A DNA stretch of 63,527 nt, filler included, from Klebsormidium nitens (GCA_000708835.1; 4 parts of 4 records of this genome joined end to end with filler, not necessarily neighbours in it); one strand, 5' to 3'; positions 42,872 to 63,527 are shown, numbered from the whole stretch's first letter. Made by a program: numbers and translations. Notes: generated from the sequence alone by a model not told the origin.

Positions 42872-45800
42872 CTAACTGCACGCGGACCCAAACTTGCACA
42901 GTCCGCTGCAACACAGGTTCCGACTGGCCGGGCATATCGCGCCATTGAAGTCGTCGCAGTTGGGGCACACCTGCTTCCCGGTACTGTCGATCGGCCTGTT
43001 CGTGCACTTCCCTGCATTATGCACCGTTGAAGTCGGCTTAAAGTCAGGGCAAACAACCTCGCTTTTAGGTGACCGTTCCGACCAGGGCGACGATCCCCGG
43101 CCCGATTTGGCGCCTTCTTTCATCGAGGTGAGGACAGTTTGCAATACAAACAGATTGATGCCCCGTTAGGTGTGATGCCGGCAAGTTTCTGTGCGAAGCC
43201 AACGTCACTTTACAACAGGGCCATTGACTCACCAAGGTTGCCGCTAAACTCCTCGGTGCAGCAATAAGCAGTTGGGCAGTCCCCGGCATAGCTACAGTCA
43301 CAGCCGCTTTTGGTTGCCGCGCAGTTTCCGTGCGGGCAGCACACGCTCTTGTCAGCGGGGCAGCTCGCACCGTTGAAGTCGCCACAGTACGGGCACACTT
43401 GGGTGCCGTTGGCGAGGACGGGCGTGTTCGTGCAGACGCCTGCATTAACCCGCGGCTGGGCTCGTCAATCTTTGCAAGTTAGTGACTTGAGAAAGCTCGG
43501 GCTACTATATGTCAGAAGCAACTTCGGCACGAAAGACATTTGCTAGGGCCTGGTGCAAATTTCCCATGTGCCCAAGAACGAGGCAGTGATCTTCCTTACG
43601 TCTGGCAATGGGCTCCGATCTGTTTGTTGAGACGCAAATCAAGTCGTCCGAAGAACGCTTTGCTCACAAAGTCTGGCCTACTTCAACTTGGTAAACTCAT
43701 AAGTCTATCCTCAAACGGGCATCCAACCATGCATGCCCTCTGGAGGCTTCATTTGATTCACTCGAAGCTTACTACGTCCTGGACAAAACAGGCAGTAATT
43801 CCATGGCCGCACGCTGGCGAGACTGTTCGACGAGGCAACCACGCCCCGGTCTACATTCTTCAAAACTTTGGCGAGCCATTGAAGTAGCCCAACATATGTG
43901 GCCGGAGTAAGACGTAACAAAAGACCATTCGACTTACCGAGCTTGCCGCTGTAGTACTCCGTGCAGCAAAAACCACTCGGGCAGTCACCGCTATAACGAC
44001 AGGTACACCCGGTATTGCTGGCTGCGCAGGTTCCGAGCGGGCAGCAGACGCTCTTGTCGGCGGGGCAGCTCGCGCCGTTGAATGTGTTGCAGTTGGCGCA
44101 CACTTGCGTCCCGTTTGTCACGACGGGTGTGTTGGTGCAGAGGCCTGCATCAGCGGGTGAGCTCGTGAATCTCTTGAGGAACACAAGTCCTAGGTGCGGG
44201 TTGAAGGTGCGTAGGCAACCAAGTGACCTTCTATGGGCCCTGAAAACATCTAGTTTCCAAGAATTTCGCTCTTTGGCAATCAGAAAATGAGGTCAACTCT
44301 GAGTTGATAACTCCTGGAGAGGCTACTTGACTATACTTGAGAAGGATTAACTGAACAGCCTGACTATATAGTGACACTCAGTTCAGGGAGAGCTGTTGTT
44401 GTCATCAGAATGCGCGCCAGCCTCATCAGTGGTGAAGGGCGCTTCTAAACCTCTTAATTTTTGAGTCAACTGTCAGCAAGCAGCCATAAACCTGCTTACT
44501 CAACATTATGGGCCCAAGAGTCCCTAAACTTCGCTATGCGAAAATCGGAATGAACGGAGCGCAAGAGTTTGGCTGCCTACCCTGGTTGCCGGTGTATTCC
44601 TCCGTGCAGCAATAGCCGGTGGAGCAGTGTCCGGCCGCCTCACACTTACAAGCGCTCTCACTCGCGGCGCATTCCCCGTAACCGCGGTTGCAACAGAATG
44701 GTTTGTTGCTGGGGCAACTCGCGCCATTGAAAGAAGAGCAGTACGGACAGACTTGGTTGCCAGTTGCAGGATCGATCGGCGACTGTACGCATTTGCCTGT
44801 ACGGAGAAATGGGCAAAGGTCTTTTGTCAAGATGCTTTGGACCACTCAGGTTTGAGTTGGCTTCCGTTGCTTAAGATGGTTTGCAAAGAAACAATTACTT
44901 TGTAACGGCATCGAGAGTCGTCCGGACACGGAATTCGATCAGCGGGTGTACCAGATGGACTCTTGTGTGCAGCTTCCAAGAGTAAAAGGCCCGCAAACTC
45001 TTCGCATCAATCTCCCTTGCTGTGATCTGTTTGAACAATAGCCTGCACTATTCCACACATTTGGCAGGGCTCGCACGGTCCGTCAGTTCCTGTCGGGGAT
45101 TTGACGAGCCGAGGAGGTCAGAGTTTGATTCGGGAGATGTTCAAGGGAGGTGTACTTCTATTTGTCTATTCTTCCGTCAAGGTAAACATTCCCGTGAACA
45201 CAAAAAATCCGGTTGTTTGGGGGGCTCAGATGGACAACCCTACTGGCCACCGTAAGTTCAACAATCCAGTCTTTCAAACCTACAAGCTTCCGACGAATAC
45301 CTCACACTTCAATGTTTGTTGTGGCGTCAACTTAGTTGCACAGTGGTGACCCGATTGCTGAACACCTTAACCCCCCCCCCCACTCCTTGTTCCTTGACGC
45401 ATACAGGCATGATGGGACTTTGATAAAGATGTGAGCAATTCGAAACAAGCTCTTTAGGCACGCCAGGGGCTCACCCAACTCGCCATTCTCCTTGGTGCAG
45501 CAATATCCAGACGGGCAGTTGGATGCGGTCCTGCACGAGCAGTCTGCGCCACTTGCAACGCAATTTCCTAACTGGCAGCACACTGGTTTAGAAGCAGGGC
45601 AGCTGAGACCGTTTAGGTCGTTGCAGTCTGGGCAGATTTGCGTGCCGTTTGCGAGGACTGGCGTGTTGTAACACGTACCTACGAGCGGCAAAAAAGACGA
45701 TTCTGATTAGACACATTCCCGGGTTTGTCAATGTTTGAAGGGTGTGAAAGCGAACGAGCTAGCTTCGAAAAGCATGAGCCACAAAAAGCAATCGAGAGCA

Positions 45801-48800
45801 CGTAGTCGCCGGAAAGAAACGCTGTCGGATGGAGTGATGGTTGAAGAATTGACGTCGATCCGGGGTTGGAGAGGGTGCAGCAATTCAGGTGGCGCCTCAA
45901 AACTTTAGACACGAGAGAATCGAACATTCAAACCGAAACTCTTGCAGCATATCTGGAAATACCATGGACACAAAATTCGACGCAACTCCTAGAGGATCAA
46001 GGTTTGAAAAGACTACTTTTGCATTGACAGCCCATTTAAGAGTTCGAAACAATATGTGTGTGACGAGATTGAAGCAGCTTGCAACTTCGGATTGATGAGA
46101 AAAGAAGCAATTATACAAGCAGCAGAATGCGAGCACGGGACCCTCGACTTGTGCCTGGCTTTGCCCGGACTGGACCACCATCAGTACACGATTCCCCTTC
46201 GAGGTCACCCGCACAACAAAGCAGGGCTTCAGCGGAGGCACCCTACCAGCAGATTGTGAGACTGGGAGCTCACACTAGTAAAAACGCGAATACGTCTAGA
46301 CTGATCGAAGTTACACACCAAAGTTACGCTAACCCATCATTTTATCGTACTCGTGACTGCCGCTTCAAATGGGGTTATACTCACCCTGCAAGTAATTCGG
46401 GTACACCGTATACTCGTACTCGCGGCTGCAGCAGTTGTTGGGCGGGCAATAACCGGCGCTGATGCATGTGCAGGAGCTTTCGGACGCGGCGCATTGCCCC
46501 GTTGGGCAGCACGTTCCTTTGCCGGCGGGGCAGCTTAACCCACTCCAACGAGTGCAGTCTGGACACACCTGCTTGCCGCTACTATTGATGGGGGCGTTCG
46601 TGCATTTACCTGTAAGTACACGCTTTTGTGATCGATGTGGCTTGGGAGAAGAAGGTTACATGGTGATAAATAGACGAGAGGAGCCAATAATCAGACTGTC
46701 GAAAATTGAGAGATGAAGCACTACAACGACGTAGAACCGACAGGTTTGAATACATAACCAAACGACTGCTGTACCTTCAAGGTGGCAATGCAATTTGGAC
46801 AGGAAGCTTGCAGGACTTGTGTGGCTGCCCGTAATCGTTGGCGATCGAGCTGATTCTCTGGGTATTAGGCACGGGGTAACGCATTCACAGCAACCAGTCG
46901 CATCGTCTTAATTTAGTGGAAGCTTGGCCCTCGACGTCTCGAATCGTTAGCATGCAAGTTGGTTGTTAGCAACCAAGTTGGTCCAGATTGACGGTCGAAG
47001 CTCTAAGAGGAGGAGTGGCAAGGAGAACCCGCCGGAGTTCCGTCGTCGTAACGTGCTCCAAGATCCTGATAGACGGCGCTGGGATTGCAATCGTACACAC
47101 CAAAGGTGTTAAGGACGTTTCAAAAAATAACAGATCGCGTCCTAGCGGCCTGCACTGATCATCAACGCTTATGGAATAACAGGCGAGGAGCCGACCTTCC
47201 TTATGACATCCTGATCAAACGGAGCCCGCCAACACAACGCACCTGTTTTGCCAGAGCTTTCTTCAGTACAGCAGTAACCGGTGGGGCACTCGCTGGAATA
47301 CTGGCAGGTGCAGGCAGCACCGCTCGCCGCGCACTGCCCGTTTGGACAGCACACCTTCTTAGTCGCAGGGCAAGCAGCGCCGTTGAAGTCGTTGCATTGT
47401 GGACAGATTTGCGTACCGTTGCTGCTGACGGGGGTGTTTGTGCAAAAACCTGCATGAGCGGTTGGGCTTAGACTTCAATCGAGGAAACCAGGGAAAAATT
47501 CTTGGTGCATTTTGAACGCCCACACTCAACCGAGCGTGATTCCCAACGTCCAAGGATGGAACCAGACACACGATAGGGCCACCCATACGAGTTGTGCTCC
47601 TACAAAAAAATCAATCCCAGATAATCTTGTGTGTTAAAATTGTCTAAAGGCAAATCTGGCAAAGCATGCTGCCATGCTCAAGAGGGCTTCGATTCTTGAG
47701 GCGCTGGTGCAGAAACAAACTTGATTGCAAAGTCAGAATATGCATCCACCCATGCGCCAGCCCCATCAGTGGTCGATCAACCCAATCAGCCTGTGAGATC
47801 AGCAAGCTCATGTTCGAAGTTTGCATCAAATCTGAGGCCCGAAAGTCTCACAAATTCTCAAAAGGATCGAACCAGGAAAAAGGAGTGAAAGAGGACCGGC
47901 TGCCCACCAGGATTGCCGGAGTACTCCTCCGAGCAGCAATAGCCGGTTGGACAGTATCCGGCCGCTTGGCATCCGCAAAAACCCTCACTCTCAGCGCAAT
48001 TCCCTCGAGGGCAGCAGAACGACTTGTCGGCAGGACAACTTGCGCCGTTGAAGCTATAGCAGTAGGGACAAACTTGGTCTCCGGTTGCAGGGTCAACCGG
48101 CGACTGGACGCATTTGCCTGTGAGAATAAGCACTCACTTTACTATCAGTTTCAGCTTCTTTCAGACGGTCTGAATCGAATCTGCAGGATTTGGAGGATTT
48201 CTTGTATGATGGGTCGCTCCGTCTCGGTTCGTCCGTTCCGTAGAAAACTCTGCCTAGCCAAGGAGTTTAACGTTGCTATAGACGATAGAAGAAGGGAATC
48301 TTTCTTTCGATTGTCAAAGTAGCAACTTTTGTTGAGCTGGGAACCGGTTCTTGAAGCCGACTCAGACGAAGAAAGACACCGGCCATCATAAGTCGGGTCC
48401 AGCTCGATTTTGCAACCCTACAAGCTTCTAGCCATGTCCATCACTTTTGCCATAAGGTAGGGTGTCCAACAGGTGTGAAGTGGTGACGGAAATACGAACG
48501 GACACCTCCTTTCCCTCGTTTTGAGCCGCAACGATCCTGATAGTGGTAGGGCTCTATTGACGGGTCTGAACATCTGTGCAACAAGCTATGTGGGCACGCC
48601 AGGGGCTCACCGAACTCGCCATTCTCCTTGGTGCAGCAGTACCCATACGGGCATTGAGAGGCGTATTGGCACGAGCAGTCTGCCTCGCTCGCGGCGCAGT
48701 CTCCCAATGGACAGCACACTGGCTTGGAAGCCGGGCAGCTGGCCCCGTTCAGGTTGTTGCAGTTCTTGCAAATCTGTGTGCCATTTGACAGGATTGGCGT

Positions 48801-51800
48801 GTTGGTACAACTACCTGCGAGCGGCAAAGACCAAGGTATCAATCAAACATGTTTTCCGCTCTGGTTACTTTGCCCTTTGTACAGGCTATGGAAGTGACCG
48901 CAGGAGGCTACCAAGCATCGAAGTCAAAAAAGGATAGAGACCGAACGGTCATCTGGCAAGAAAATGTGTGAATGACAAACGACATCGATGGGTCAGGGGA
49001 ACGTTCAAATCTAGTCGTGGTTCAACAATTTCAAAATATAATGAGAAGATCAGTTGAGGTGCAATGTTGGTTCATTCCACAGATATCTAGGGGGCTACGA
49101 GTCCTAGAGAAATGCCTCGCAATAGCGGTTCAAACAAAGACAAACCGTGTGATGTCCAAAAAGTGACTCCTGCCAACAACTTTGGAGGGATCCGGAAAGA
49201 AAGGCCGTTTAGGAAAGCGGCAGTGAGAATCGGACTCCTCAAATTATGACTTCAGCACGACTAAACCACCAAACACATTCAATCCCCTGTCCAAGGTTGA
49301 ACGGCAAACATGGCATGTCTTACAGTGGAGGCGCCCAGATAGAAGGTTGCCAGACTCGGAAGTATCCCTACTTAGCAGAAATCAAAGCGGAGTACATTTG
49401 GAGGTTCATGGCTTTGCTGAAGCCTTTGAATCCAATCTGAAATGAGCGGAAGAGCATCGGTTGCCTACCGAGGTTGCCGGAATATTCCTCCGAGCAGCAA
49501 AAACCGGACGGGCAATATCCGGCCGCTTCACACTTGCAACCGCTCTCACTCGCGGCACATTCTCCGTGGTTGGGGCAGCAGAACGACTTGGAAGCCGGGC
49601 AGCTGAGACCGTTGAAGCTATTGCATTGCGGGCACACCTGTGTGCCATTTGCAAGGACGGGCGTGTCGTAACAGGTGCCTACGAATGGCAAAGAACGGAA
49701 GATCAGTAAGGGGCACTGCCCATCCTCGTCGAATCCAATTTTTTTGTCCACTTGAGGGTATGAAGGCAATAGCGAGCCAGAGCAAGAAAGCATGAGCGAC
49801 AAAACGTGGTGAAGAGCACGTGGTTACAAGCCAGAGTGGTTGTTGAGCAAAGATTGCAGGGAACAACGTCAACGGGTAGTCAGAAGGTGCAAGTTTGGTG
49901 GCAGCTCAAAATCCAGACTCACTTAGAAGTGAGATCTGAATGGACAGAGTAAAACTCGAAGGACTCTCTGGGAAATAGGTAAGATTGCAATTTGCTCGTC
50001 CGAAGAAGATCACGGTCGGTCGGAAATGACCCGTTTGCATAAAAGGCTTCCTGGTTATGTGGCAGTTCGGAAGGTCTAGTTGCGAAGAACAATGTTTTGG
50101 CCAAACATTTCGCAAAGTCTGAAGGTAAGAATCTGCCGTAGAAGCAGCAGGGAAAGAGAACGGAACCTTCGACTCGTGGCTTGCACGATTGGCTCAACAA
50201 CGTACAGCTCCCTGCTCAAACTTAACGGCAAGGATGGCAGGTCTTCATCGTGGAGGCGCTCCAGTAGCATTCTGCAGAAAGTAGAGCTTGTCCCTGCTTA
50301 GATTGTGGAGTACGACTGGCGTTCATCGGGTTTATGCTTTGGGGTTATACTCACCCTGCTTGTAAGTCCCGGTGTTGGAGTCGTAGTCGTACTCGCGGCT
50401 GCAGCAAGTGTTGTACGGGCAATAACCGGCGCTGATGCATGGGCAGGAGGTTGGAGATGCAACGCACTGCCCCGATGCGCAGCAAGTTCCTTTGCTGGCG
50501 GGGCAGCTCAGCCCGTTCAAATTGTTGCAGTTTGGACAGACCTGCTTGCCGCTGCTGTTGAAGGGCGCGTTGACGCATCTTCCTGCAAGGACAAGCGTCT
50601 CTTTAGACCATGTTGGCTTGGGGCAATAAGCTGAAAGCGGATGACGAAGTAAGAACATTGAACCGGGAAATAAAATCGTTGGGCATCACAGGATCTGGAT
50701 AAGCGATGAAGAACTACCCCAACGCGATGTCTACAGATCCAAACGACGACCTTTCAGACGTTCTCAACTAGGAAGCTTGGATATTGGTGGCTGCCTGTGA
50801 ACGTTGAGATTCAAATCGATACTCTAGTAGGTATCACAAAACTCATCCGCATCTTCGTTCCCTCAGAAGCCTGGGGGTAAACGTTTCGGAAGTTTTGAGC
50901 AACTTGAAGTTGGTTTCAAGAATGATTTAAACACTTCAAGGATTAAGGGAGTCCGTCAACCAACCGTCAACCACTATTATCCTTGTACGGTGCCCCAATC
51001 CAGACAGGCGGCAGTGAAATGGCCATGCGATAGACCCAAGATCCTCTGCGGAGGAACATCCACCAACGGCGATTCACTCCGTCCCAGCCGCCACATTAGC
51101 AAGCTCATGAATCGACCATTTAATAGCCGACCTTTTCTTGAACGTTCTAATGAGACGGAGCCCAGGGAAACGACGCACCTGTTTTGCCGGATGACTCTTC
51201 GGTACAGCAGTAATTGCTGGGGCATTGGCCGGAGTAAGTGCAAGTGCAGCCGGCGTTGGTTGCCGCGCACTGCCCATTCGGGCAGCACACCTTCTTGTTG
51301 GTCGGACAGGATAACCCATTGAAATCGTTGCAGTTTGCGCACTCCTGGGTGCCGTTGCTGAAGAAGGCCGTGCTCGAGCAGTGTCCTGGAGAAGGAAGTT
51401 GACTCTTGAGTCTCAGAGCGGTGTGAGCAAGCAAATAATGGTGAGCATCGTTGGAGCGCTGGTCGGATTCTCGTGCCAAGTCCAGCTTGAAGCTCGCTAA
51501 TCTCAGGCCAAGAAACGAGAAGCAGATCAACTGGAGATCGATCTACATATGAACGGGGTGCCAAAAGTGTCGAAACAATGAGAAAGAAGGGTCGACGAGC
51601 CTGCTCACTCGCACTACACGCTTTGAGCGGATTCTCGTCAGAAGCGTAAAAGTTTTAAAGGAATCTCGCCGCCATTCGATCGAGCAGTACTGCACACGGT
51701 TACTATGAAGCTGGGGCACGAAGCTGCACCACGTCCGTGAAGCGTTGTGCCACTAAGTTGAGGTCATCAAGTTTTCGGATTTAGTCAAAAAAAACAAAAA

Positions 51801-54259
51801 CTCATAAGTTGGGGCACTATAGTCCATGTGGCTCACCATCGACGTAATAGCCCGTGCAACAAGAATCCTGCGGGCAGTAGTAGGAGCTATAAGGACAAGG
51901 GCAGGCCTCCACGTCACTGACGCATTCTCCGGACTGTCTACAACATACTCCCTTGTTGGCGGGGCAGGAGACTCCGTTGTATTCCTGGCACTGTGGACAG
52001 ACCTGCGCGCCACTGCTGTCGAAGGGTGCGTTTGTGCAATGACCTGCAGGAGGAGAAGACGGCTCTCCCTGTGTTATTTTCAAATCAAGACCACTCCAGG
52101 TACAGAAGTTCGCGTCTCCCTTTTCATACGAATAACAGATTCGTATTTAAAGAGCAATCCGACTCCACTTAGAAACTTGCGTTAAATGGCGGAAGAGTGC
52201 CTGGGGGAGTCAAAACGGGCCTGCTGACGCAGTTTGCTCTTACGAGAAAAACGCAAGGACGGATACCCAGCGTCAATGAGCAACTGTCTGCAAACTGGAA
52301 GGGAAAGCTGCAAATAGTACGGTCTGGCAAAAGGTTTCGTCCGAGATGAGGGAACCAGACAGCAAGATCAGCGATCTCGAACATCAATTTTAAATTTTGC
52401 ACCTCGAGCATACGTGCATGCTAGGCCGATCTCAGACATTTTGATGGCCACGATCAGTCGCCAGGGATTGACCATAGATGCCATCTTCTACAACCCAATC
52501 ATGCCAACGCTTACCAGTTGTACCGTTTCGGTAATCTCCAGTACAGCAATACCCTGATGGACATTGACCATTGGACTCGCAGGTGCATGCGCTCTCGTCT
52601 GCGGCGCATCCTCCAGTGGGGCAGCAGAAAGGCTTGTTGTCGGGGCAGGCGAGGCCGTTGGCGTTGAAATCGTTACAGTTAGGACAAGCCTGGGTGCCAT
52701 TTGAAAGGATAAGCGTATCGGTGCAGGTGCCTGCCCAAGAACGAGAGAGAAGTTGAAGGCAAGTACTGAGACAAAGAGCGTTTGCCTAGAATCTGATCCG
52801 GTCTTGTACCCAGCTGCAAGCTCATCAAGGCTCTGCACAACATACCTAGCGCCATTGCTGACGTATGCGATCTATGTACGGAGCAACGTATGTCGATCCT
52901 ACACTTTTCAAGTGTAAGTACACTAAAAGAGACTAAGAACCTGGTGAAATATCTCTTGAAGACGAGTCAGTGACCCGAGCAAAGAAGCCTGTGCGGATTC
53001 AGCCTGTCACGTTTGTGAACATGTAACATGTGTTATGATACTGCTAGCAAGTGAAGTTCTTGCTCCTCCCAGTGAACTTGAGTGCCTCACCTTCGTTGCC
53101 CGAATAGTATTCTCTGCAACAAAAGCCTGTTGGACAATAATATTGGGAGTAGTAACAAGGACACTCATTGGCCGATGCTTTGCACTCTCCGGTGGCGCAG
53201 CACACTCCCTTTTCGGGAGGGCAGGTCGGTCCGTTGAACACGTTGCAATTGGAGCAGACCTGGGTTCCGTTGGACAACACTGGCACGTTTGTGCAAACAC
53301 CTGAAAAGGAGCGGAAACGATTGTGAGGGTCGGAGATACAAGACGTTCAGTGGAGGACGCGCTGAAAGAGAAAGAAGCTTGGGAAAACTTCGATGCTCTT
53401 CATTCGGGCTCTTATGAAGCAACGGAGGGTAAGAGGAGTCAAAGAGACCATAAGAGCGAGTCTACTTCCAAAGGTTCAAGAGGTCTAATGTGAGTACGCA
53501 GCAGTGATTGAAAGAGAACCAAGAAAAGAGGGCCATTCTTTGATAGTTGCATATTGGAGGTCTGGTGAAGTGTCCGTTTAATTCGCATTGGGTCAGGATG
53601 TCTCGAATCTAGGCCAGGGTAGTAGTGCTTTTCGTCTCAAAGTCAGCGAGTTGCACGTGCAACTCAAATACTAAAGCAACTTCGTTTCCAATAGGGGCAG
53701 CCGGAAGCGACAAATAACGCCTTTGCAAACGCTACGGATGGAAGAGCTAGCAAATGTGAAAATCACACACTTCTTTCAACATCTCTTAGAATAACCAGCT
53801 TGTCCACAACACGCACAGTTTTTCAACTCTGATGAATTTTATCGACTATGTCAAGTTCAGGTCAACAAGTCTTCCAAAGATATAAAGAGTACCCTTGCGA
53901 GACACTTACCAACTTTGCCCGTATACTGTTCGGTGCAGCAGCCTTTATTCAGGGCGCAATCAGAGGTCGATCTGCACCTCCTCACGGGGGGTGGAGGTGG
54001 AGCCCGGCGCGGCGGGGGGGGATTTGGCCCAGGGAGAACCAAGGGTGGAGGATTCAATGGAGGCGGTGGTGGGGGGTTTTTCGTAGAGACTGGCGGCGGA
54101 GGCATGGGACTTTGTGGTGGCGGAGGTTGCTTTGGAGGAGGCGGGTTTTTCTTGGGGGGCGGAGGTGGTGGAAGAACGGCTTTGGGAGGGGGAGGGGCAC
54201 CGCGTGGGGGAGGGTTGAGTGGCGGCGGCGGGCTTTTGGTTTGAGGAGGTGGGTTTGCG
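42872..54259 (-). CDS. Large Pro-rich / Cys-rich repeat protein (probably extracellular); 5' end lost in gap
   Basis: A Pro-rich exon ending about 53909, then repeat exons 53091-53300, 52515-52730, 51837-52043, 51179-51385, 50355-50582, 49469-49678, 48611-48814, 47908-48117, 47243-47449, 46385-46609, 45475-45678, 44581-44796, 43938-44144, 43233-43439 and terminal exon 42872-43011. All introns are phase-1 GT-AG, and every internal exon is a multiple of 3 and stop-free. Confidence 0.9.
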
Positions 54260-54359
54260 NNNNNNNNNNNNNNNNNNNNNNNNNNNNNNNNNNNNNNNNN
54301 NNNTTAATTAATTAANNNNNNNNNNNNNNNNNNNNNNNNNNNNNNNNNNNNNNNNNNNN
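54260..54359. other. Artificial contig linker (N-TTAATTAATTAA-N)
   Basis: TTAATTAATTAA at 54304-54315 within a 100-nt N block. Confidence 0.95.
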
Positions 54360-54363
54360 CCTC

Positions 54364-54419
54364 GACCCACCAAGCCTGACCCACCAAGCCTGACCCACCA
54401 AGCCTGACCCACCGAGCCT
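54364..54419 (+). repeat. 14-bp tandem repeat x4
   Basis: GACCCACCAAGCCT at 54364, 54378, 54392 and 54406 (last copy has one mismatch). Confidence 0.95.
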
Positions 54420-54485
54420 AAAATCCTAAAACCCTAAATTCTGAAAACCCTATAATCCTATTACCCTAAAACCCTACCCTAAAAA
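54417..54485 (+). repeat. Degenerate telomere-like tract (CCCTAAAA / CCCTAAA variants)
   Basis: cctaaaatcctaaaaccctaaattctgaaaaccctataatcctattaccctaaaaccctaccctaaaaa, the C-rich strand of TTTTAGGG/TTTAGGG-type repeats. Confidence 0.65.
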
Positions 54486-54778
54486 GTGGATTGGCGCCAC
54501 GTGAGCAGAATAAAGCGTCTTGTCGTGAAGATCGATAATTATTTTCTTAGTGGATTCCCTGGTGATTAGTATCACGAGACAGTAAGACAGTAAGACGCAT
54601 TTTTTGGAAAGTTTTTGAGATTCGGGACGGGAATCGAGGGATTTCAGGATCCTGGGGCCGTCCCCAGAAATGCGTCTTTGTGTCTTGCGTCTTATAGGGT
54701 GGTATGGGCGGGCCGGCGGATCTGCCGAGCTACGGGGGATCAAGAACGAGAAGAGAAAATTTCTGTCTCGGTGATAGG

Positions 54779-55309
54779 ATGAATAGAGAACAGGCAACCG
54801 AGTTGCTCTCGAAGTTCGATTCCACTACGAAACTCTTCTCTCTCGCAGGGCTAAAGACATATTGCCGACCGGTGTCTTTACATGATTTGGTCACTATTTC
54901 GGTAGTGTTTCCATTCCAAGGCCGGGATGTCCATAAGATAAATTGTAGGGTCCTAGGCCTGGATAGCGCGGAATCGACGTCCAAAAACCCGATCGTGAAG
55001 GCTTGGGCCGTGAAGGCGCGCAACCGCATGCTCTCGCTCATCGCTCCCGGCGTCTTCGAGGTCGACGGTAGTTACTCGAAGAAGGACATCGAGAGGTTGC
55101 TCGCGGAGAACGTCAGCATGCTCTACATACACGCTTACGAGTACGAGAAGTTCGGGCGTCTGCTGGTCGACCTATTTCTCGACGACTCTGCGTCCGACAG
55201 GGGTGAGACCTTGCAGGCGATCTGTATCCGGGAGAATTACGCGAAACCGTATCACGGGAAGATGAAGAGCCAGTGGGTACCGGAAGACTGCCGTCTCAAC
55301 GTTTCCTAA
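54779..55309 (+). CDS. Thermonuclease (staphylococcal nuclease-like) copy A, 176 aa
   Basis: Motifs HDLVT (DxDT with D to V), RVLGLDSAE, EKFGRLL and YAKPYHG. The true start is probably ATG 54779. Confidence 0.85.
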   Translation: MNREQATELLSKFDSTTKLFSLAGLKTYCRPVSLHDLVTISVVFPFQGRDVHKINCRVLGLDSAESTSKNPIVKAWAVKARNRMLSLIAPGVFEVDGSYSKKDIERLLAENVSMLYIHAYEYEKFGRLLVDLFLDDSASDRGETLQAICIRENYAKPYHGKMKSQWVPEDCRLNVS

Positions 55310-55557
55310 GGAGACTGCAGACCGAATCGGATGGTCGGGGGAGGGATCGAGGAGTCCAGCGGGATGGGTACGATCGTAGAGAACCTCTGGGGAGGATCGG
55401 GGGCGGTGCAGAGGGGCTTCCTCGATGTGGCGCCCTGAGAGGAACTGGGCGTGCAAATGAGGTCGAAATGTCGGCGGGAGCACGCGTAGCCCCGCTCAGC
55501 CCCGAACCCGTCGGTCACGTAGAGCATGATGCTCTCATTCGCGGGGAGTCCGTACGA
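55306..55557 (-). pseudogene. 3' fragment of the expansin-like gene (duplicate of 59750-60000)
   Basis: Near-identical to 59750-60000 (SYGLPANESIMLYVTDGFG...FGLQSP*). Ends at a 20-N gap. Confidence 0.75.
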
Positions 55558-55583
55558 NNNNNNNNNNNNNNNNNNNNGATAGG

Positions 55584-56100
55584 ATGAATAGAGAAGAGGC
55601 AACCGAGTTGCTCTCGAAGTTCGATTTTACTACGAAACTCTTCTCTCTCGCAGGGCTAAAGACATATTGCCGACTGGTGTCTTTACATGATCTGGACACT
55701 ATTTCGGTAGTGTTTCCATTCCAAGGCCGGGATGTCCATAAGATCAATTGTAGGGTCCTAGGCCTGGATAGCGCGGAATTGACGTCCAAAAACCCGATCG
55801 TGAAGGCTTGGGCCGTGAAGGCGCGCAACCGCATGCTCTCGCTCATCGCTCCAGGCGTCTTCGATTTCGACGGGAATTACGCGAAGAAGGACATCGAGAG
55901 ATTGCTCGCGGAGAACGTCAGCATGCTCTACATACACGCTTACGAGTACGAGAAGTTCGGGCGTCTGCTGGTCGACCTATTTCTCGACGACTCTGCGTCC
56001 GACAGGGGTGAGACCTTGCAGGCGATCTGTATCCGGGAGGGTTACGCCAAACCCGTATGACGGGAAGACGAAGAGCCATTGGGTACCGGAAGACTGCCGT
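55584..56100 (+). pseudogene. Thermonuclease copy B with a +1 frameshift near the C-terminus
   Basis: Near-identical to copy A, HDLDT intact. An extra C in AAACCCGTATGA gives an early stop at 56058-56060. Confidence 0.8.
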
Positions 56101-56126
56101 NNNNNNNNNNNNNNNNNNNNGATAGG

Positions 56127-56600
56127 ATGAATAGAGAACAGGCCACCGAGTTACTCTCGAAGTTCGATTCCACTACGAAACTCTTTTCTCTCGAAGGGCT
56201 GAAGACATATTGCAGACTGGTGTCTTTACATGATCTGGACACTATTTCGGTAGTGTTTCCATTCTAAGGCCGGGATGTCCATAAGATCAATTGTAGGGTC
56301 CTAGGCCTGGATAGCGCGGAACTGACGTCCAAAAACCCGATCGTGAAGGCTTGGGCCGTGAAGGCGCGTAACCGCATGCTCTCGCTCATCGCTCCAGGCG
56401 TCTTCGAGGTCGACGGTAGTTACGCAAAGAAGGACATCGAGAGGTTGCTCGCGGAGAACGTCAGCATGCTCTACATACACGCCTACGAGTACGAGAAGTT
56501 CGGGCGTCTGCTGGTCGACCTATTTCTCGACGATCCTGCGTCCGACAGGGGTGAGACCTTGCAGGCGATCTGTATCCGGGAGGGTTACGCCAAACCATGA
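56127..56600 (+). pseudogene. Thermonuclease copy C: premature stop and 3' truncation
   Basis: CAA to TAA at 56265-56267. Similarity ends at YAKP (about 56596-56600), and the missing tail reappears at 59695-59753. Confidence 0.8.
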
Positions 56601-56874
56601 TAAATAGCGGAGATATGGAGACCGTGGAAGCGGCGATGCGATTGCGAGCCCTCGTTGAGCAGAACGGGGCGGGCAAGGAAGCGCCGGCACCCTGACGACC
56701 TTTTCAAAAACTAATACCAAAGATGGGCGAACGAATAGCTACTCACGCCAACCTGGACCCTTGCGCGAGACGGGCCATATGGAATCGTTTGAATGCATTT
56801 GTGTGATCGGCCGGGCGATTGTATGCATCAGAGTCTATGCGGTTCACTTTATTTTCTCGAGCACTGGACACGAC

Positions 56875-57393
56875 ATGGATAAGGAGCAAGCTGCACAGCT
56901 TCTCTCCAAATACGATGACTCGACAAAGCTGTTCTCTTTGGATGGATTGAAGACTTACGCGCGGGTTGTCGCTATGCATGACCTTGATACTTGTACGGTC
57001 GTATTTCCGTTTCAAAACAACGACGTTCACAAGATCATCGTGCGGCTACTCGGTATCGACTCGCCGGAAATGAATGCGAAACACCCCACGGTAAAAGATT
57101 GGGCCGTGAAAGCGCGCAACCGTATGCTTTCTCTCGTGGCACCAGGGGTATTTGAGATAGATGGAAACTATACGAGGAAAGATATCAACAAGCTTTTCAG
57201 AGAGAATGTGGCGTTGATCTGGATGGATGCGAAGGGTTGGGATAAGTACGGGAGGTGTCTTGGAGATATCTACCTCTCCCCTGACGATACAAAGTCTCTG
57301 CAAACCATCTGCATCGAACAAGGCTATGCAAAAGTCTACGATGGGGGCACTAAGAATCAGTGGGTGCCAGAAGACTGCGTCCTGAGATCGTAA
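56875..57393 (+). CDS. Thermonuclease copy D, diverged and intact, 172 aa
   Basis: Motifs HDLDT, VRLLGIDSPE, DKYGRCL and YAKVYDGGTK. Intact SNase catalytic motifs, clearly diverged from copies A-C. Confidence 0.88.
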   Translation: MDKEQAAQLLSKYDDSTKLFSLDGLKTYARVVAMHDLDTCTVVFPFQNNDVHKIIVRLLGIDSPEMNAKHPTVKDWAVKARNRMLSLVAPGVFEIDGNYTRKDINKLFRENVALIWMDAKGWDKYGRCLGDIYLSPDDTKSLQTICIEQGYAKVYDGGTKNQWVPEDCVLRS

Positions 57394-57434
57394 ACTGCTC
57401 TACCGCCGAGCCTGCCCCCCATTTCTGACCGCAA

Positions 57435-57921
57435 TTATACGACATGCTTGTGCATTCGACGCAATTCTACCCTCCTCAAATGAGCTTTCGAGACATTGTA
57501 CTTCACGGCTCGCTGAGCATGCGTAAGCCCGTCTTTTCCAAACGTAGCTCGAATCTTCCGGACCTGATCCTCCGTCAGCTTTGCAAAACCACATCTCCCA
57601 TGACGTAACATATCAATTGCATTCTCGCTGCACGTCCCTATCTCTAGATGCTCTGGTGCACAGCAGGCGCGATTCCCACAGAGATGCCGGACAACCTTCC
57701 CGATCTTCTGACCGACCTCGACTGGTCCCCCCTGCTTGATCTCGTAAGAGAGAATGTGCGTCAAGCGGCTCCTTCCGAAGACGCTTATCGTACCGTATCC
57801 ATCATTGATCTTTGTTCCCATCCAAATTCGGCATGAGGTACCCCCGTAGGAGCTAGTCCCGTCGACTCTCATCTTGCTCTCCAACCGCTGCCGAGCCTGC
57901 TTGTACATGTCGCCCGTCCAG
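57435..57921 (-). CDS. HNH / His-Cys box homing endonuclease module + HTH (C-terminal part of a split gene)
   Basis: CRIWMG...GYGTI...THILSY...VRHLCGNRACCAPEHLEIGTCSEN followed by AKLTEDQVRKIR (HTH). The ORF track extends this frame to 58490. Confidence 0.85.
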
Positions 57922-58209
57922 TCCATCATTTGATCGGAACGGCGGTCGCATCCGGCAGCAACGACCACAAACAATGGAGCCATATCTGGATATTCATCTG
58001 TGCGCCGATTGTAGGGGGTATACTCGCGGGCCTCAACCCGCTCTGGATCGATCGGACGCCCGAGCCTGATCACGTTCCCGCGCCGGCGCCGGCACTGACC
58101 GCCTGAGTGATTGCCTCGCCATCGCGCCTGCAGGGTAGCACAAGTAATCATCAGTCCAATGCGTCCTATCATTCTTGCATTTTTCCAGCTGTATACAGTA
58201 TTGTTGCCT

Positions 58210-58482
58210 ATGGACGAGCGACGATTCTTCATCGACTTGTGCGCATTCATAATCCGATACATGCATACGAACGACTTGTCTGGAAACCTTGATGACTTCA
58301 TGATTAGACTATCCAGATTGAGGGACTGGTATGTTTCGTTGGCGCCTGAACTCGCAGAAAGCATCGCATCAGACGAGAATCTACAGAGAAGTTGTATGGG
58401 GTATGAATTTTTTTTGAAAGAGATCTGTGTGCACGATATCTCACCTTCCCCTTCATTGGCTTTCAAGAGTAGCGACCACTGA
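58210..58482 (+). CDS. Small hypothetical protein, 90 aa
   Basis: MDERRFFIDLCAF...; amphipathic-helix composition. Antisense to the upstream half of the 57435-58490 frame, so one of the two is likely a shadow. Confidence 0.35.
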   Translation: MDERRFFIDLCAFIIRYMHTNDLSGNLDDFMIRLSRLRDWYVSLAPELAESIASDENLQRSCMGYEFFLKEICVHDISPSPSLAFKSSDH

Positions 58483-58662
58483 AATTGCATGTACAGATGT
58501 GTCCTTTATCAGTTGCTGAAGCTTGGATGACTTCACACCTTGCAAGCGTTCCCCTGGAGTATTAACGATTTTGTATTCGAAAGGCAGTTCGTTCCACTGT
58601 TGCAAGGCACGCTCATCGGATGCAGAAACTAAGAAAGTCGAGCTGCCAGACGTGATATTCAT
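58453..58662 (-). CDS. Small hypothetical protein, 69 aa
   Basis: ATG in AAAATG context after an AT-rich stretch; intronless. Confidence 0.4.
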   Translation of the reverse strand: MNITSGSSTFLVSASDERALQQWNELPFEYKIVNTPGERLQGVKSSKLQQLIKDTSVHAISVVATLESQ

Positions 58663-58784
58663 TTTGTAAGTACGTTAGAGAAAAAAAGTATTACACACCG
58701 CAAGGAGAGATGTTCAGCAGGGTTTTTGGGGGGTTGCCTGGTTTGGGCATCATTATGATCAGGGGCATGACGCGGTGTCAATGA

Positions 58785-59594
58785 TCCAGACCCGGGCCTT
58801 CGCGCGAGCCAGCCGCGCTCTTGTCTTGTCTAGACTCAGCATTCCCCACTATCGATTTTGTAAACGATCTTCACATGTACTCCAAAACGCTTCGCGCGCT
58901 CAATTGCAGTCTCGTGGCCCGCTTGACCCCTCCTCGTCGTGGGCTTCGAGTCCTTGATTCGACGGGCGAGTTCTTCCGATATACTGGCATTGTGATTCTT
59001 CGGACCCCTCGGCAGTGTCCCGTTAGCGATCTTGTCGTCATAATTGTTCTCCCGCAGAGTACCGTATGCTAGATGAGTCGGTTCGAAACAGCGCGAGTCG
59101 TTGCACAGGTGTCGCAATACGAGCGGCACTCCGTTCTCGTCTTGCTCCGTGGGACTTTCCACCAGGCTCTTGTGAAGCATATAGGACGCTTTGTGGATCC
59201 CCATCATCACACCACGGAGACTGACTTTTTCATACGCTTTCTCGGCGACCAGGCACCCGTTGCCGAGCCGCACCCCACGCTTCTCCAGTCTCGCCCAGAT
59301 GATCGCGGACGACTTCTCCTCTTTCAGAGGCATTCTCCGGAGATGCTCGACTTTGACGCACTTGTTGTTCTCACAGATCACCTTGCATTTATGAAACTTG
59401 TCTAGGGGCTCATCCGGATGATTGAAGCCCCAGAGAAAGCGCCGCACGTTGGTCTGCTGCATTTTTTTATTCACACTCTTCCTCAAGGTGCGGTAACCAT
59501 TCACATCCAACCGTCCCAACCATGGAAGACACCCGTTCGCATCGGCAGACCCTGTCTTCGCCCTGATTGCTTCCACGACCTCATGCTCATCCAT
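58785..59594 (-). CDS. Double HNH-type module + HTH (N-terminal part of a split homing endonuclease gene)
   Basis: GCLPWLG...GY...CENNKCVKVEHL (degenerate first module), then RHLCNDSRCFEPTHLAYGTLREN and an HTH (ASISEELARRIK...RAKRFGV). Main frame stops at 58836; a shifted frame continues DKTRARLARAKARVW. Confidence 0.85.
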
Positions 59595-59749
59595 GTTGGC
59601 TGCTCTACATGCAAAATCGCCTCTCCCTAAATGGGGTCTCGAACCTGGGTCCTGCTTCTGAGATAGAAGCTAAACAGCAGTGTGTAACGCAGAAATCACG
59701 GGAAGACGAAGAGCCAGTGGGTACCGGAAGACTGCCTTCTCAACGTTTC

Positions 59750-60307
59750 CTAAGGAGACTGCAGACCGAATCGGATGGTCGGGGGAGGGATCGAGGAGTC
59801 CAGCGGGATGGGTACGATCGTAGAGAACCTCTGGGGAGGATCGGGGGCGGTGCAGAGGGGCTTCCTCGATGTGGCGCCCTGAGAGGAACTGGGCGTGCAA
59901 ATGAGGTCGAAATCTCGGCGGGAGCACGCGTAGCCCCGCTCAGCCCCGAACCCGTCGGTCACGTAGAGCACGATGCTCTCATTCGCGGGGAGTCCGTACG
60001 ACTGAAACATTCCGGCGTAGGTGTGCTCCAAATGCATCCAGCCCTGGTCGGAGGCGACCTTCACCCCCATGACGTTGCCCGCTTCGCCTCCTAGCGGCGC
60101 GAAGTCTATGATGGAGAAGAGCCCTTGATCGATTAGGTCCAGAGAAGCGTCTCCGCCGCCGGTCGTCGGGCACCGGGTCCTCGTGAGGCTCCCTTCGGAC
60201 GTCGACGGGGCGCTCGAGTATCGCTCCGCCAGAGCGATGGAGCCTTTGGGGCAATCCTCGCAGCTGCCGGCGACGTATGCGAGCCGCGGTCCCGCGCCCT
60301 TGCTGCT
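59750..60307 (-). CDS. Expansin-like (EXLX-type) protein, 5'-truncated by gap, with P-rich tail
   Basis: The frame is open from the gap: ...LAYVAGSCEDCPKGSIALAE...RCPTTGGG...NVMGVKVASDQGWMHLEHTYAGMFQSYG...IVLYVTDGFG. This resembles the DPBB end plus CBM63 domain of expansin-like proteins. Its stop overlaps the SNase stop. Confidence 0.55.
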   Translation of the reverse strand, partial: SSKGAGPRLAYVAGSCEDCPKGSIALAERYSSAPSTSEGSLTRTRCPTTGGGDASLDLIDQGLFSIIDFAPLGGEAGNVMGVKVASDQGWMHLEHTYAGMFQSYGLPANESIVLYVTDGFGAERGYACSRRDFDLICTPSSSQGATSRKPLCTAPDPPQRFSTIVPIPLDSSIPPPTIRFGLQSP

Positions 60308-60407
60308 NNNNNNNNNNNNNNNNNNNNNNNNNNNNNNNNNNNNNNNNNNNNTTAATTAATTAANNNNNNNNNNNNNNNNNNNNNNNNNNNNNNNNNNNNN
60401 NNNNNNN
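60308..60407. other. Artificial contig linker (N-TTAATTAATTAA-N)
   Basis: TTAATTAATTAA at 60352-60363 within a 100-nt N block. Confidence 0.95.
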
Positions 60408-60570
60408 TGATGTAAGTATTCTCTATAGACACTTCACTCATCACCCTGGTACAGCTGTGAACCCCGGCGCGAGCCGGACACTTCAACCATTCTAAGCTTG
60501 TACCAGGATGGTGTAAGTTTTGTCTATAGAAGGAACCTACATCATCATGGTACAAGCTTGGAATGCTGAA
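60408..60570. repeat. About 101-bp degenerate tandem repeat with internal inverted repeats
   Basis: TGTAAGT..T.TCTATAGA at 60411 and 60512. AAGCTTGTACCA at 60494-60505 is inverted at 60548-60559. Confidence 0.65.
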
Positions 60571-60652
60571 AGGGCCAGCTGGCGCACTGTTCATGCGCTT
60601 TGCCCACGTTGGTACGGACTCTGTTGCCTGTGGATTCTATCCGATGACTCAC

Positions 60653-63527
60653 CAGTCCCGCCCCCATCCACGGTCGCTTGGGCACCCGCTCGCAAGCCCG
60701 GCAAGCCCGCGCTGTGCACGGGGCGCTCTCCGTCACCAAGTCGACCAGAGCCTATACGTTCTTTGGGAGGCCCGCCCGCATTGCCAGGAACTCGTCTGGA
60801 GTGAGGGGTGCATTGCTACAGCCCTTCGGTGCCTTTCTAAAGTTGCACCACCGCATGGCGGCCGCACGCACCGCCGGCGTGATGTCCGATAGGCCGTTGC
60901 GGTACTTCCACTCGCAGTCGATGAGCTCCCTTGGAGCATCAGATGGCCACAGCCCTCCAACGCTCAGCGGTGTAAAGCCACCCCCCACGGTGGGGGCCCC
61001 CGGCCCTGGCTCTGTTATGCTGTGGAGCCCACTCTCCTTGGCGTCTCGCATGGCGCTCGCGTTGGGGAAGAAGGTTCCATCGAACGTGATCACCTTGTCC
61101 GGGCCAAAAGCATAGGTCTCCAGCTGGTCCGCATCCCCCTCCGTCCGCTCCCGTGCGAGAGGCGTGCCTCCTTCTCGAGCAGCCGCCTCGGCTGCTAGCA
61201 CCTCCGAAGTGTACAAGTGCGAACAATCCGGCCGCTTGCACGCATGCTGAATGGGCCTGGCCGCCAGGTCGTTGAAGGCCCTCATGGCGGAGTCAAAGAC
61301 CCTATCATCCAGGCGGGGCGCTCCGGGCCCGTCCAAGCTGGCCGCAGCCATATCGTTTGCGTCGAAGCCCAGGGTGTGCGAGGCGCCCAGGGCGGCCGCA
61401 AAGTGATTTCGCAACAGCAGGCCGTGGGAGATCAGGTTGGTGCCAGAGAAGTTGAAGATCCCATCCTCCTGAATGAGCGGCGCGTACGAGCGTCAGCAAA
61501 GTTTCCGCATTAGAATGCACACGAGATGAGCAAAGCCCATGAGGAAGAACGTGAGCAAAATGACCACTTCGCCCAGGTGCTAGCCATTGTCAGCTCAAAG
61601 AGACTGCTCAACATTCAAGACACCGCCTCCGCTATCGCAACATGCACCGACGCGAGAGACCGTGTGCAGCCTCTGCTGGTAGACTCGCCAATCTCGTTGA
61701 CCCCCGGACCATTGCAGATGCTATGCGACGCCCCATCCCAGCTGTGCTCCGTCTGTTCCAGGAAAGAAACGCGACTGCGTTGCCCGCTACAGCCACACGC
61801 GGGCAGAGCGGTATGCGAACGCTGCTGGGAACATGATCATTGGAAAGAACTCGAATTTCTCTCGTGGAGAGAGGCACGCGATATTTATAAAGTGACCAAT
61901 GAAGGTTTGAAGACGCTGCAATGGGCCCAGTCGCCTCATCGCTGGAATCAACGCTACTTCAGAGAGCTTGACGTCAGGTCGCTGGCAATCCAAGAGGCGG
62001 GCGGCGTGGCAGCATTTCAAGTCAGACGAGACAAGGTTCGATCGAATGCCCGCGCGCGAAGGCTCGCAAATCTGGTGCGGCGCTACGATGACCTGTCAGC
62101 CCTCGGAATGGATATCGAAAGACAAGTCTACCTCGCGGGCCTGCTCATCAGGGACTGCATCAATCTACAGGTCCCGAATGGGAGCCGTCTGCTTGACGAA
62201 GTGATACATGCTGCAGCGAGCACTCAGAATCAATCGGACGACGGAAATCTTTCCAGTCATCTGGACTGGATAGCCCCCCTCCATTCCCTAAAGCGCTACA
62301 CAGACTTCAAAAAGGGCACCACGCAGCCTTGAAGTTTTCCCCTTATTTGTGCCCGCAGCTGATGGCGAGCCGTCGGATGTCCTCGCCTTCCAGTTCACCC
62401 CTCTTTTTTGCCGACACAATCATGGCCTTGAGCTCAGCCTTAAGCACTCGAGTAGCTTTTGCCTTTGTCTTCATGTTGGCCTTGCGCTCCTCCATCGCTG
62501 CGTTGGCCCTGCCTATGTAGGGCCTTTCCTCCGCCAGGATGGCAAATTGCGCCTCGACATGGCGACGGTCTGTCCTTATAGGCGGGCGCCGCGCGCCCCT
62601 CTTTGCAAATGCTATTGCTGCAGCGTCCTTTTCAGCTCTGGTCACTCTCGCAGCAGCAATGGCGCAGTTGACATGCATGTTTTTGCGCGCTTGCCCGCCA
62701 CCGGACCTAGCCTCTTCAATGGACTCCGTCATCAATGTACGTTCATCGACGGAAATCATAAACTGGCCTGAACGCGCCCTCACCTGCCCATCGTATGCCA
62801 GGCTGCAGCATGCAGCCACTCTACCCGGCTGCATCGCACACACCCTCCGATGTACGGTCACCGGATAGCGAGCCCCCGCCATGGTCAGCATACCCTTGCG
62901 ACTCTCCATCACCCACCGCCTCCCGCATGGCGCTGCATCCTGCAACGGCCTCGGCCCGCAGAAATGCTTGGCAGCATCGCGCTGTGCCACGCCGCTGTCC
63001 CCCCACCGTTCGCAGGAGTCGACCACCGCCCGTCCCCCGCGGCTCATGACTGTGTCAATTGCCTTGTGCGAGTGGCCCATGTCCAACGCTGCTGCCGGCG
63101 GACAGAGCCACTCCTCGCGAACGTGCGCGCAAGGGCCCGCAAAATCCAAAGAGCGGCAGGTCGGATCGTTGCACACCGTCAGCCGCTCTCCTGACTCCCG
63201 GAGCGCCTCCAACACTTCGAGTTTATCTCTGCGCTGGGAGGCTCCTCGAGCCGGCGGGGGCACAGCACCTCGCCTCACAGAGACACTCCCAGCTTCGACT
63301 ACCAGCTGCAGATGCGAGCAGAGGCTCTGCTCATGGCTAGCCACCTTGCACCGGTCGCAGTGAGGCCGCCCGCCCATTCCCAAGCTGCACACCGCGTCGC
63401 CGTCTGGCTCTGTCCCAACGACTGCAAAGACTCTGAGCCGAGCCCCCCGCCATGCCTGGGCATTGAGCCCCTTCAACCTCGGCCCGAGCATGCCATTCCG
63501 ATCGATCGGAATGATGCCCGCGCCATC
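60653..63527 (-). mobile_element. KDZ (Kyakuja-Dileera-Zisupton)-type transposase with CxC cysteine cluster; in-frame stop; extends beyond window
   Basis: SWIM-like CxxC...CxH motifs, then APCGRRW...VTVHRRVC...CCSLAYDGQ, an intron (61469-62783), then EDGIFNFSGTNLISHGLLL and VITFDGT. A TAG at 60752-60754 is followed by in-frame ALVDLV up to a donor at 60652. Confidence 0.72.
61526..62332 (+). CDS. F-box-like / XPA C-terminal-like Zn-binding protein, 268 aa, nested antisense in the transposase intron
   Basis: CSVC...CERC zinc pair then LSWREARDIYKV...LKTL...PH...YFRELDVRSLAIQEAGG, like the XPA C-terminal domain. N-terminal LLNIQDTASAIATC is weakly F-box-like. Confidence 0.6.
   Translation: MSKAHEEEREQNDHFAQVLAIVSSKRLLNIQDTASAIATCTDARDRVQPLLVDSPISLTPGPLQMLCDAPSQLCSVCSRKETRLRCPLQPHAGRAVCERCWEHDHWKELEFLSWREARDIYKVTNEGLKTLQWAQSPHRWNQRYFRELDVRSLAIQEAGGVAAFQVRRDKVRSNARARRLANLVRRYDDLSALGMDIERQVYLAGLLIRDCINLQVPNGSRLLDEVIHAAASTQNQSDDGNLSSHLDWIAPLHSLKRYTDFKKGTTQP

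Follow-up and report, generated by a model that had tools for sequence, protein, structure and literature searches.

Several diverged phycodnavirus-like viral contigs have been described in Klebsormidium flaccidum, two of which carry plant-like expansins beside VLTF3, and an expansin gene in such a viral context was proposed to help in crossing the wall; up to 2017, streptophyte algae had no giant virus on record (PMC5294986). Giant endogenous viral elements (GEVEs) marked by mCHG in Klebsormidium nitens (10.1101/2025.04.15.648976) and endogenization in Klebsormidium (PMC11244446) are noted in the accessible portions of two further sources, and a third, likewise available in part, describes viral remnants in Acanthamoeba that are subtelomeric, duplicated, chimeric and methylated (PMC12210455). 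Here we examine a 5,948-bp contig at positions 54360-60307 of a 63,527-nucleotide stretch of K. nitens DNA (GCA_000708835.1; referred to below as the window), most of which (54486-60307) a first-pass annotation made from the sequence alone had described as an endogenous giant-virus-like segment. The contig probably holds a decaying fragment of Nucleocytoviricota DNA that became joined to telomere-like host repeats, probably near a chromosome end of this streptophyte alga, was duplicated, and is apparently methylated. What is new here is the junction with a telomere-like repeat, a clade of SNase-family (PF00565) nucleases with no near relative found in IMG/VR, and, linked to the SNase, an expansin-like family of far greater divergence.

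The segment shares with the Klebsormidium flaccidum/nitens inserts the small viral-type contigs, the several diverged and rearranged copies, an expansin or expansin-like gene and methylation (here apparent), so far as the available text of the two reports goes (PMC5294986; 10.1101/2025.04.15.648976). Those inserts include capsid, PolB, ATPase and VLTF3 genes, whereas no hallmark gene is present here, and their expansins are closest to those of plants and flanked by VLTF3, whereas for the gene described here no plant homolog could be detected and the partner is an SNase (the comparison again extends to the accessible parts of PMC5294986); a further difference is that a junction with a telomere-like repeat is visible here. 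The Acanthamoeba Neff insertions, as presented in the available portion of their description, are similar in lying near canonical and degenerate telomeric repeats, in being chimeric and methylated and in having no terminal inverted repeats, and their partial copies are 85-95% alike; they differ in host supergroup and gene content, and their subtelomeric position is seen on chromosome-scale assemblies, whereas here we infer it (PMC12210455). The segment behaves like known viral remnants, but we file it as a virus-derived fragment and not as a full GEVE because no hallmark gene is present: a Pfam scan of the contig open reading frames (ORFs) found no capsid, PolB, A32 ATPase, VLTF3 or D5, in agreement with the first-pass annotation. 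Its central proposal is supported as regards the origin of the SNase, and integration is better supported than contamination, but the segment is a small, duplicated, decaying fragment beside telomere-like repeats and no recognisable provirus. Literature searches turned up neither this gene pair nor a report of Klebsormidium viral DNA at telomeres, although Figure S5 of PMC5294986 and the bioRxiv supplements could hold either.

The SNase gene is present in four copies (Table 1). The ORF containing copy 4 (56761-57393) scores 43 bits against the PF00565 profile, for which the cut-off is 21; copy 2 falls under the cut-off and copy 1 gives no match. Copy 4 has the complete Asp/Arg/Asp/Glu/Arg catalytic set, the roles of which we take to be those of the Staphylococcus aureus nuclease; R56, D61, E64 and R126 are invariant in all 24 aligned SNase rows, and the D37 column, which is Asp in 22 of the 24, is Val in copy 1. 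No PDB sequence matched at E up to 0.01. A protein search returned 42 hits among 55 candidates, 22 of them at 45-89% identity and drawn from Logan, JGI and ENA records, and in the three top-scoring ESM-Atlas clusters (0.95-0.96) 99-100% of the members are viral, with Nucleocytoviricota the commonest assignment. In a metagenome scan, the 80 retained of at least 118 relatives among at least 601 stretches have best segments at 25-39% identity, save for one short match at 50%, and all of the metagenome matches listed are distant, with no member of the close clade among them. The only match in an IMG/VR scan, one of 65 stretches, is a contig of a giant-virus metagenome-assembled genome (34%), and a scan of the same collection with a single SNase confirmed none of 14 matches.

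Both a quick tree of 120 rows (125 collected, five duplicates dropped; four of 85 loci with short ORFs omitted) and a careful tree of 35 rows recover a clade of window SNases, with support of 100/97 in the latter. In the careful tree this clade lies inside a 17-row clade (98/97) that includes contigs L001, L002, L003, L007 and L009, and three cyanophage rows and one bacterial-plasmid row stand apart (98/99). Pfam was run on 43 ORFs next to these SNases, most of them taken from a list of 82, and identified eIF4E, PCNA and RPB1 on L007, TFIIS, ThyX, a helicase, DUF5767 and DUF5901 on L009, and an EF-Tu-type GTPase and PolX on L001; we take DUF5767 and DUF5901 to be giant-virus families. The L007 RPB1, of giant-virus type, occupies two ORFs (12576-19450), the first of which holds an intein with a LAGLIDADG domain. 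With the giant-virus SNase family in general the window copies share the fold family and the catalytic columns, and their nearest relatives with readable context lie on giant-virus contigs (28-39%); what sets them apart is a distinct clade, made up of themselves and 22 database proteins (45-89%), that has a conserved insertion around ARNRMLSL and was matched to no IMG/VR contig. On these comparisons a giant-virus origin is supported for the SNase, and for the SNase only among the contig genes: Nucleocytoviricota are seen as nearest relatives for it and not for the HNH genes, the expansin-like gene or the small ORF described below. Best-hit taxonomy and phylogeny, which the first-pass annotation had put forward as checks, are in this way informative for the SNase, whereas the similarities of the HNH proteins do not discriminate.

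The stop codons of the SNase (TAA) and of the expansin-like gene on the opposite strand (TAG) overlap on CTAA at 55306-55309 and again at 59750-59753. Both of these overlaps had been recognised previously and both are present, but they are copies of a single junction (307 bp, 98.7% identical), which counts once, and at 59750 the SNase side is just the stub of copy 3. In five records the relatives of the two proteins share their source and the length of the longest contig (13,524, 25,687, 78,655, 49,089 and 10,895 bp), and the SNase and expansin-like identities run in parallel (94/99, 93/98, 89/89, 89/91 and 63/60%), which suggests that the two form a conserved gene pair.

The name expansin-like is only partly borne out. 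The protein has no match in Pfam, PDB, NCBIfam or PHROGs; DPBB_1 and Expansin_C give no match with the window fragment or with the relatives P0053 and P0054, and no PDB expansin is found at E up to 1. When 1.84 billion representatives were searched with a profile, the search returned three proteins only, two of which are in or identical to the query set, and no plant homolog; none of 83 matches to the alignment in IMG/VR was confirmed, and reference expansins sought in one plasmid and 14 control genomes gave none. The HFD motif, presumably a feature of expansin domain 1, is absent from all six aligned rows. A language-model search nonetheless points to expansins, with ESM-Atlas features scoring 0.89, 189 of 256 of them shared, and all 10 of the top family hits belonging to a single family or clan; the ESM-Atlas model matches an expansin at TM 0.56 with low confidence (pTM 0.43), and AlphaFold models (mean pLDDT 37 and 35) are unusable. 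With plant and microbial expansins (DPBB_1 plus Expansin_C) the full-length relatives share a length of ~270 aa and a hydrophobic N-terminus, and the language-model features and predicted fold point towards that family, but they have no Pfam, PDB or profile match and no HFD, and they carry a C-terminal Pro-rich tail. The protein probably has an expansin-type fold; we do not file it as an expansin, and wall loosening is a prediction only.

The scaffolds of the window are strung together by linkers of the form N44-TTAATTAATTAA-N44, one of which lies at 25099-25198 and two of which bound the contig, as had been described; within the contig there are two gaps of 20 N. The first two scaffolds are ~52% GC with short exon-like ORFs, whereas the contig ORFs are intronless and tightly packed, as the first-pass annotation had it, with ~82% coding across 54773-60307 (a figure that depends on the choice of ORFs). 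The observed/expected ratio for CpG is 1.13 in the contig against 0.80-1.04 in 92 overlapping 5.5-kb intervals of the host scaffolds, and for TpG 0.96 against 1.06-1.28. The contig is coding-dense and intron-poor, with a composition unlike that of the host scaffolds. The abrupt switch that had been seen here falls on a scaffold linker, however, and so does not mark a boundary in the biology; the true one is within the contig, near 54720. An exact look-up of ten window ORFs in a sequence collection returned no matches.

We compared the window with the contig sets of sequencing runs X1 and X2 (the source runs), of X5 (another sample) and of X7 (same species label, other sample and study), in which summed depth does not equal copy number. 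The first ~400 bp of the contig have summed depths of 1,762-5,213 in X1, X2 and X7 against 14 for the 2,479-bp contig of X1 and X2 that spans 57289-59767, and because of this contrast 54360 to ~54720 is assigned to a high-copy repeat; the segment first drawn from 54486 begins, then, in repeat and not in viral genes. The consensus of the telomere-like array, CCTAAAAC, is the complement of TTTTAGGG, and its C-rich strand points left, as at a left chromosome end; TTTTAGGG telomeres are reported in Klebsormidiophyceae and some Chlamydomonadales (PMC3622300), and together with GC content and gene types the repeat points to a host that is probably a streptophyte alga of Klebsormidium type. Back-joints from 54707-54722 to 54496-54499 in four runs, with loose ends at 54721-54722, suggest that the ~220-bp unit is tandem elsewhere in the genome, where it is likely a subtelomeric satellite. 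In the window contig, DNA without N runs from the telomere-like array into SNase copy 1; X2 record 9 (54686-55248) and X1 record 1 (joint 54736-55578) each contain ~37-40 letters of repeat plus gene, and the leaders of two JGI proteins (P0014 and P0046) match 54670-54750 at 70-74% over 27 codons. The segment is physically linked to host DNA through a high-copy telomere-like repeat, the linkage seen being to the repeat rather than to host genes.

SNase copies 1-3 are mutually 95-96% identical, and copy 4 is 59% identical to copy 1. Copies 2 and 3 start at the same base, six bases 5' of the ATG and directly after the 20-N gaps, and we did not accept the tandem order of copies 1-3 as a biological arrangement, the shared start pointing to likely stacking by the assembler; the source-run contigs of X1 and X2 carry copy 2 on into this expansin-like junction as well (joint 56099-59738, its short side 30 letters long). 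Other contigs from the source runs, 3,752 and 1,621 bp in length, match 57289-57382 and 57934-57998 at ~86-88% and then diverge; they are additional paralogs of the SNase and HNH genes at other genomic sites. Among copies 1-3 there are 31 substitutions over 156 codons, 16 of which are synonymous where 23-31% would be expected (p 0.0005-0.015, depending on the transition weighting); the synonymous share is 9 of 13 for copy 3 and 7 of 18 for copies 1 and 2 together. Selection thus seems to have acted on the gene, whether in a virus or in the host, during the divergence of copy 3, although chimeric assembly of near-identical copies could distort the counts. This excess is the main support for an alternative that we regard as unlikely, in which the copies diverged as replicating viruses: an unsampled giant-virus lineage of streptophyte algae would insert repeatedly, preferentially at telomere-associated repeats and with the SNase at the junction, and would carry a second, highly divergent expansin-fold protein for wall crossing.

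SNase copy 3 is split by a 3.1-kb block that contains SNase copy 4, two HNH/His-Me endonuclease genes and a small orphan ORF. The left junction of the block is bridged by X5 record 18 and the right by X1 record 6, X5 record 23 and X7 record 32. The RHxC...C...HL..G...N motif and profile scores above the cut-off place the endonucleases in the HNH/His-Me finger group. The first likely starts at 57929 in a frame that is open to 58490; a 351-aa reading was rejected, its first half having no family match and overlapping a plus-strand ORF. The small ORF belongs to no family in Pfam, NCBIfam or PHROGs. The nuclease families named by the first-pass annotation are confirmed by these profile scores and that of the SNase, but the statement that they are typical of large DNA viruses does not extend to HNH: there are three database relatives at 34-43%, 12 of 37 stretches in IMG/VR are confirmed, mostly at 31-42%, and most of the ten contigs inspected are phage-like by eye; for the second endonuclease none of five IMG/VR matches was confirmed. 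As judged from these similarities the HNH genes do not discriminate, neither supporting nor excluding a giant virus. One X5 contig omits 868 bases at 57916-58785 and another links 57216 to 57865 on opposite strands, possibly rearranged versions in another sample.

The same set of genes could be the cargo (SNase, HNH and expansin-like) of a subtelomeric mobile element that is not a giant virus, whether transposon-, polinton- or plasmid-like, with an SNase acquired anciently from a giant virus. Its several copies per genome and the extra paralogs in source-run contigs (X1 record 7, X2 record 15) fit such an element, as do the synonymous excess among copies 1-3, the missing hallmark gene, the failure to find the close SNase clade in IMG/VR and the HNH genes, which are typical selfish elements. 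We consider it improbable all the same, since neither terminal repeats at the ends of the 3.1-kb block nor a transposase, helicase, integrase or capsid among the contig ORFs were found (the block has neither the ends nor the enzymes of a DNA transposon, whether of the terminal-inverted-repeat or Helitron type), the convergent overlapping stops and non-host composition fit a compact viral genome, and the SNase groups with giant-virus contigs.

Reading frames in the segment are broken: copy 2 is frameshifted, copy 3 is both stopped and split, and copy 1 has lost the conserved Asp. These changes, the lack of any gained introns and the retention of CG cytosines in a bisulfite-type run (measured on the contig only) argue against a domesticated host cluster, in which the alga would have retained virus-derived SNase and expansin-like genes for use in defence or in remodelling its wall, with amplification at chromosome ends. 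We give that explanation little credence, even though it would account for the synonymous excess, for the same repeat junction in other records (P0014 and P0046) and for the intact catalytic columns of copy 4.

The bisulfite-type run is X7, which covers 28 of 30 bins of the contig and in which C>T or G>A changes make up 318 of the 327 differences listed, the pattern expected of bisulfite data. Where sites were scored (56970-57142 on the plus strand and 56917-56964 on the minus strand), 16 of 23 CG cytosines are unconverted, together with one of six at CHG (five of these being CCG) and four of 32 at CHH. In five of the eight longer X7 contigs the number of differences is close to the number of CHH sites (for example 34 against 34-35, and 33 against 34), so that CHG sites would be retained, as judged from counts only. 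The segment is apparently methylated, and the methylation check proposed at the outset shows CG cytosines retained on the contig itself. Contamination or misplacement, against which the first-pass annotation had cautioned, is less well supported than integration, in favour of which stand the repeat-gene bridges, the CG-retaining second sample and the JGI leaders. The linkers and internal gaps, the short bridges and the thin coverage of copy 1 in X1 and X2 would suit free-virus or other contaminant DNA that was co-assembled and mis-joined to a host repeat; this is highly improbable given that the segment recurs in a second sample and study with the same species label and a CG-retaining conversion pattern, that its frames are broken, that two JGI records have the same repeat-to-SNase leader, and that the 14-bp repeat pattern has no match in IMG/VR.

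A bacterial or phage source by horizontal transfer is scarcely credible, and for the SNase the data already speak against it: SNase and HNH families are common in phages and the IMG/VR relatives of the HNH proteins lie mostly on phage-like contigs, but the best phage SNases are just 31-34% identical (E 2e-5) and the one plasmid record 31%, all branching apart, and a pattern scan of 185,579 prokaryote genomes confirmed none of 11 matches.

A number of observations nonetheless weigh against an integrated and decaying Nucleocytoviricota fragment. The contig lacks a hallmark gene; a single gene family carries the case for viral origin, and its 22 close relatives have no readable gene context, while its close clade was not found in IMG/VR; and the HNH relatives there are distant and largely phage-like. 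The rows of the careful tree were hand-picked from the 120, and its outgroup is thin, with four phage/bacterial rows and no eukaryotic Tudor-SN. The repeat-gene bridges in X2 record 9 and X1 record 1 are short and barely above the detection bar, coverage of copy 1 in X1 and X2 is thin and comes from a contig that differs from it at 13 letters, and a true chromosome end is not established, the telomere-like array being degenerate and having the 14-bp repeat on its left. The synonymous excess, mostly in copy 3, is not predicted by neutral decay after one duplication. The X7 figures come from the contig alone and establish neither excess methylation nor single-copy depth; all four plus-strand CHG sites scored, each of them CCG, are converted, and the 110 bp at 56860-56969 show no listed plus-strand C>T in X7 despite 15 CHH sites, which is unexplained.

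We propose that the Nucleocytoviricota fragment arose as follows. A virus of an unsampled lineage would have carried the convergent SNase and expansin-like pair that is seen in the window; in that virus the SNase is predicted to degrade nucleic acid, the HNH proteins to act as selfish homing-type endonucleases, and the expansin-like protein to aid in loosening the host wall. Viral DNA is joined to the telomere-associated repeat just 5' of the SNase start, possibly through non-targeted repair at an unstable chromosome end. The repeat-SNase-expansin unit, now in at least three copies that are 95-96% alike, would then have spread, likely by exchange between chromosome ends, and the assembler probably stacked the copies across the 20-N gaps. 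A second, related viral piece with SNase copy 4 and the two HNH genes entered copy 3, the junctions being visible and the cause possibly a recombination initiated by HNH. The region is likely kept methylated by the host and is decaying, as a stop, a frameshift and an active-site change attest; silencing would be the consequence of the methylation.

Table 1. Features of the viral-type contig and its flanks; positions are those of the window.
Feature	Position	Strand	Basis
Assembly linker N44-TTAATTAATTAA-N44	54260-54359		left contig edge
14-bp tandem repeat, 4 copies, part of high-copy host repeat	54364-54419	+	summed depth ~4,150-5,200 in X1, X2, X7
Degenerate telomere-like array, period 8, consensus CCTAAAAC	54417-54478	+	repeat analysis
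High-copy unit, ~220 bp, joins SNase leader near 54720	54496-54722		depth 1,762-4,496 in X1, X2, X7
SNase copy 1, 176 aa, open frame	54779-55309	+	alignment; Val at conserved metal-ligand Asp column
Expansin-like gene copy A, 3' part, cut by 20-N gap	55306-55557	-	stop overlaps SNase stop
SNase copy 2, frameshift near 3' end	55584-56100	+	translation, alignment
SNase copy 3, 5' part, premature stop, split by 3.1-kb block	56127-56598	+	alignment
3.1-kb block inside SNase copy 3	56597-59694		copy 3 matches copy 1 to 56596, resumes at 59695
SNase copy 4, 172 aa, intact, catalytic columns intact	56875-57393	+	Pfam, alignment
HNH (His-Me finger) endonuclease 1, C-terminal helix-turn-helix-like tail	57435-57929	-	Pfam HNH_3 32.5 bits, cut-off 24.8; PHROG matches
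Small ORF, 91-123 aa depending on start	58111-58482	+	ORF call
HNH (His-Me finger) endonuclease 2, 252 aa, two HNH-like stretches	58836-59594	-	Pfam zf-His_Me_endon 27.2 bits, cut-off 27; PHROG matches
SNase copy 3, 3' stub, 59 bp	59695-59753	+	alignment
Expansin-like gene copy B, 185 aa, truncated 5' at contig edge	59750-60307	-	ORF, relatives
Assembly linker N44-TTAATTAATTAA-N44	60308-60407		right contig edge

The other scaffolds of the window contain genes of several kinds. An ORF at 845-1759 on the minus strand has no Pfam match at E 0.01, and we take it to resemble a DIRS-type tyrosine recombinase; at ~5139-8480 on the plus strand there is a glutamate-receptor-like channel gene split by introns (Lig_chan, 32.7 bits), and at 26510-27139 on the minus strand a Myb/SANT-like (trihelix-type) domain (34 bits). 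An array at ~42500-54259 is built of at least ten Cys-rich, exon-like units that resemble one another, several of them 76-81% identical in nucleotide sequence, with a Pro-rich end at 53857-54259; they are probably a family of secreted or wall proteins, and the three ORFs tested have no Pfam match. The scaffold at 60408-63527 is 60% GC and contains a 78-bp imperfect palindrome (60488-60565) and long uninterrupted ORFs rich in Cys/His motifs at 60752-61414 (minus), 61526-62332 (plus) and 62343 to the end (minus), with no Pfam or NCBIfam match above cut-off; presumably it resembles the end of a SWIM/CxC-type transposon.

Taken alone, a decayed 5.5-kb fragment is a modest addition to a published phenomenon. 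Fossils like this segment, however, record the gene content of the giant viruses of streptophyte algae, and the SNase clade is a specific marker with which the parent virus could be sought in data from soil or fresh water. The expansin-like gene linked to it would give viruses a second and independent means of loosening the wall, and the junction with a telomere-like repeat would extend the subtelomeric bias seen in Acanthamoeba to the algal relatives of plants.

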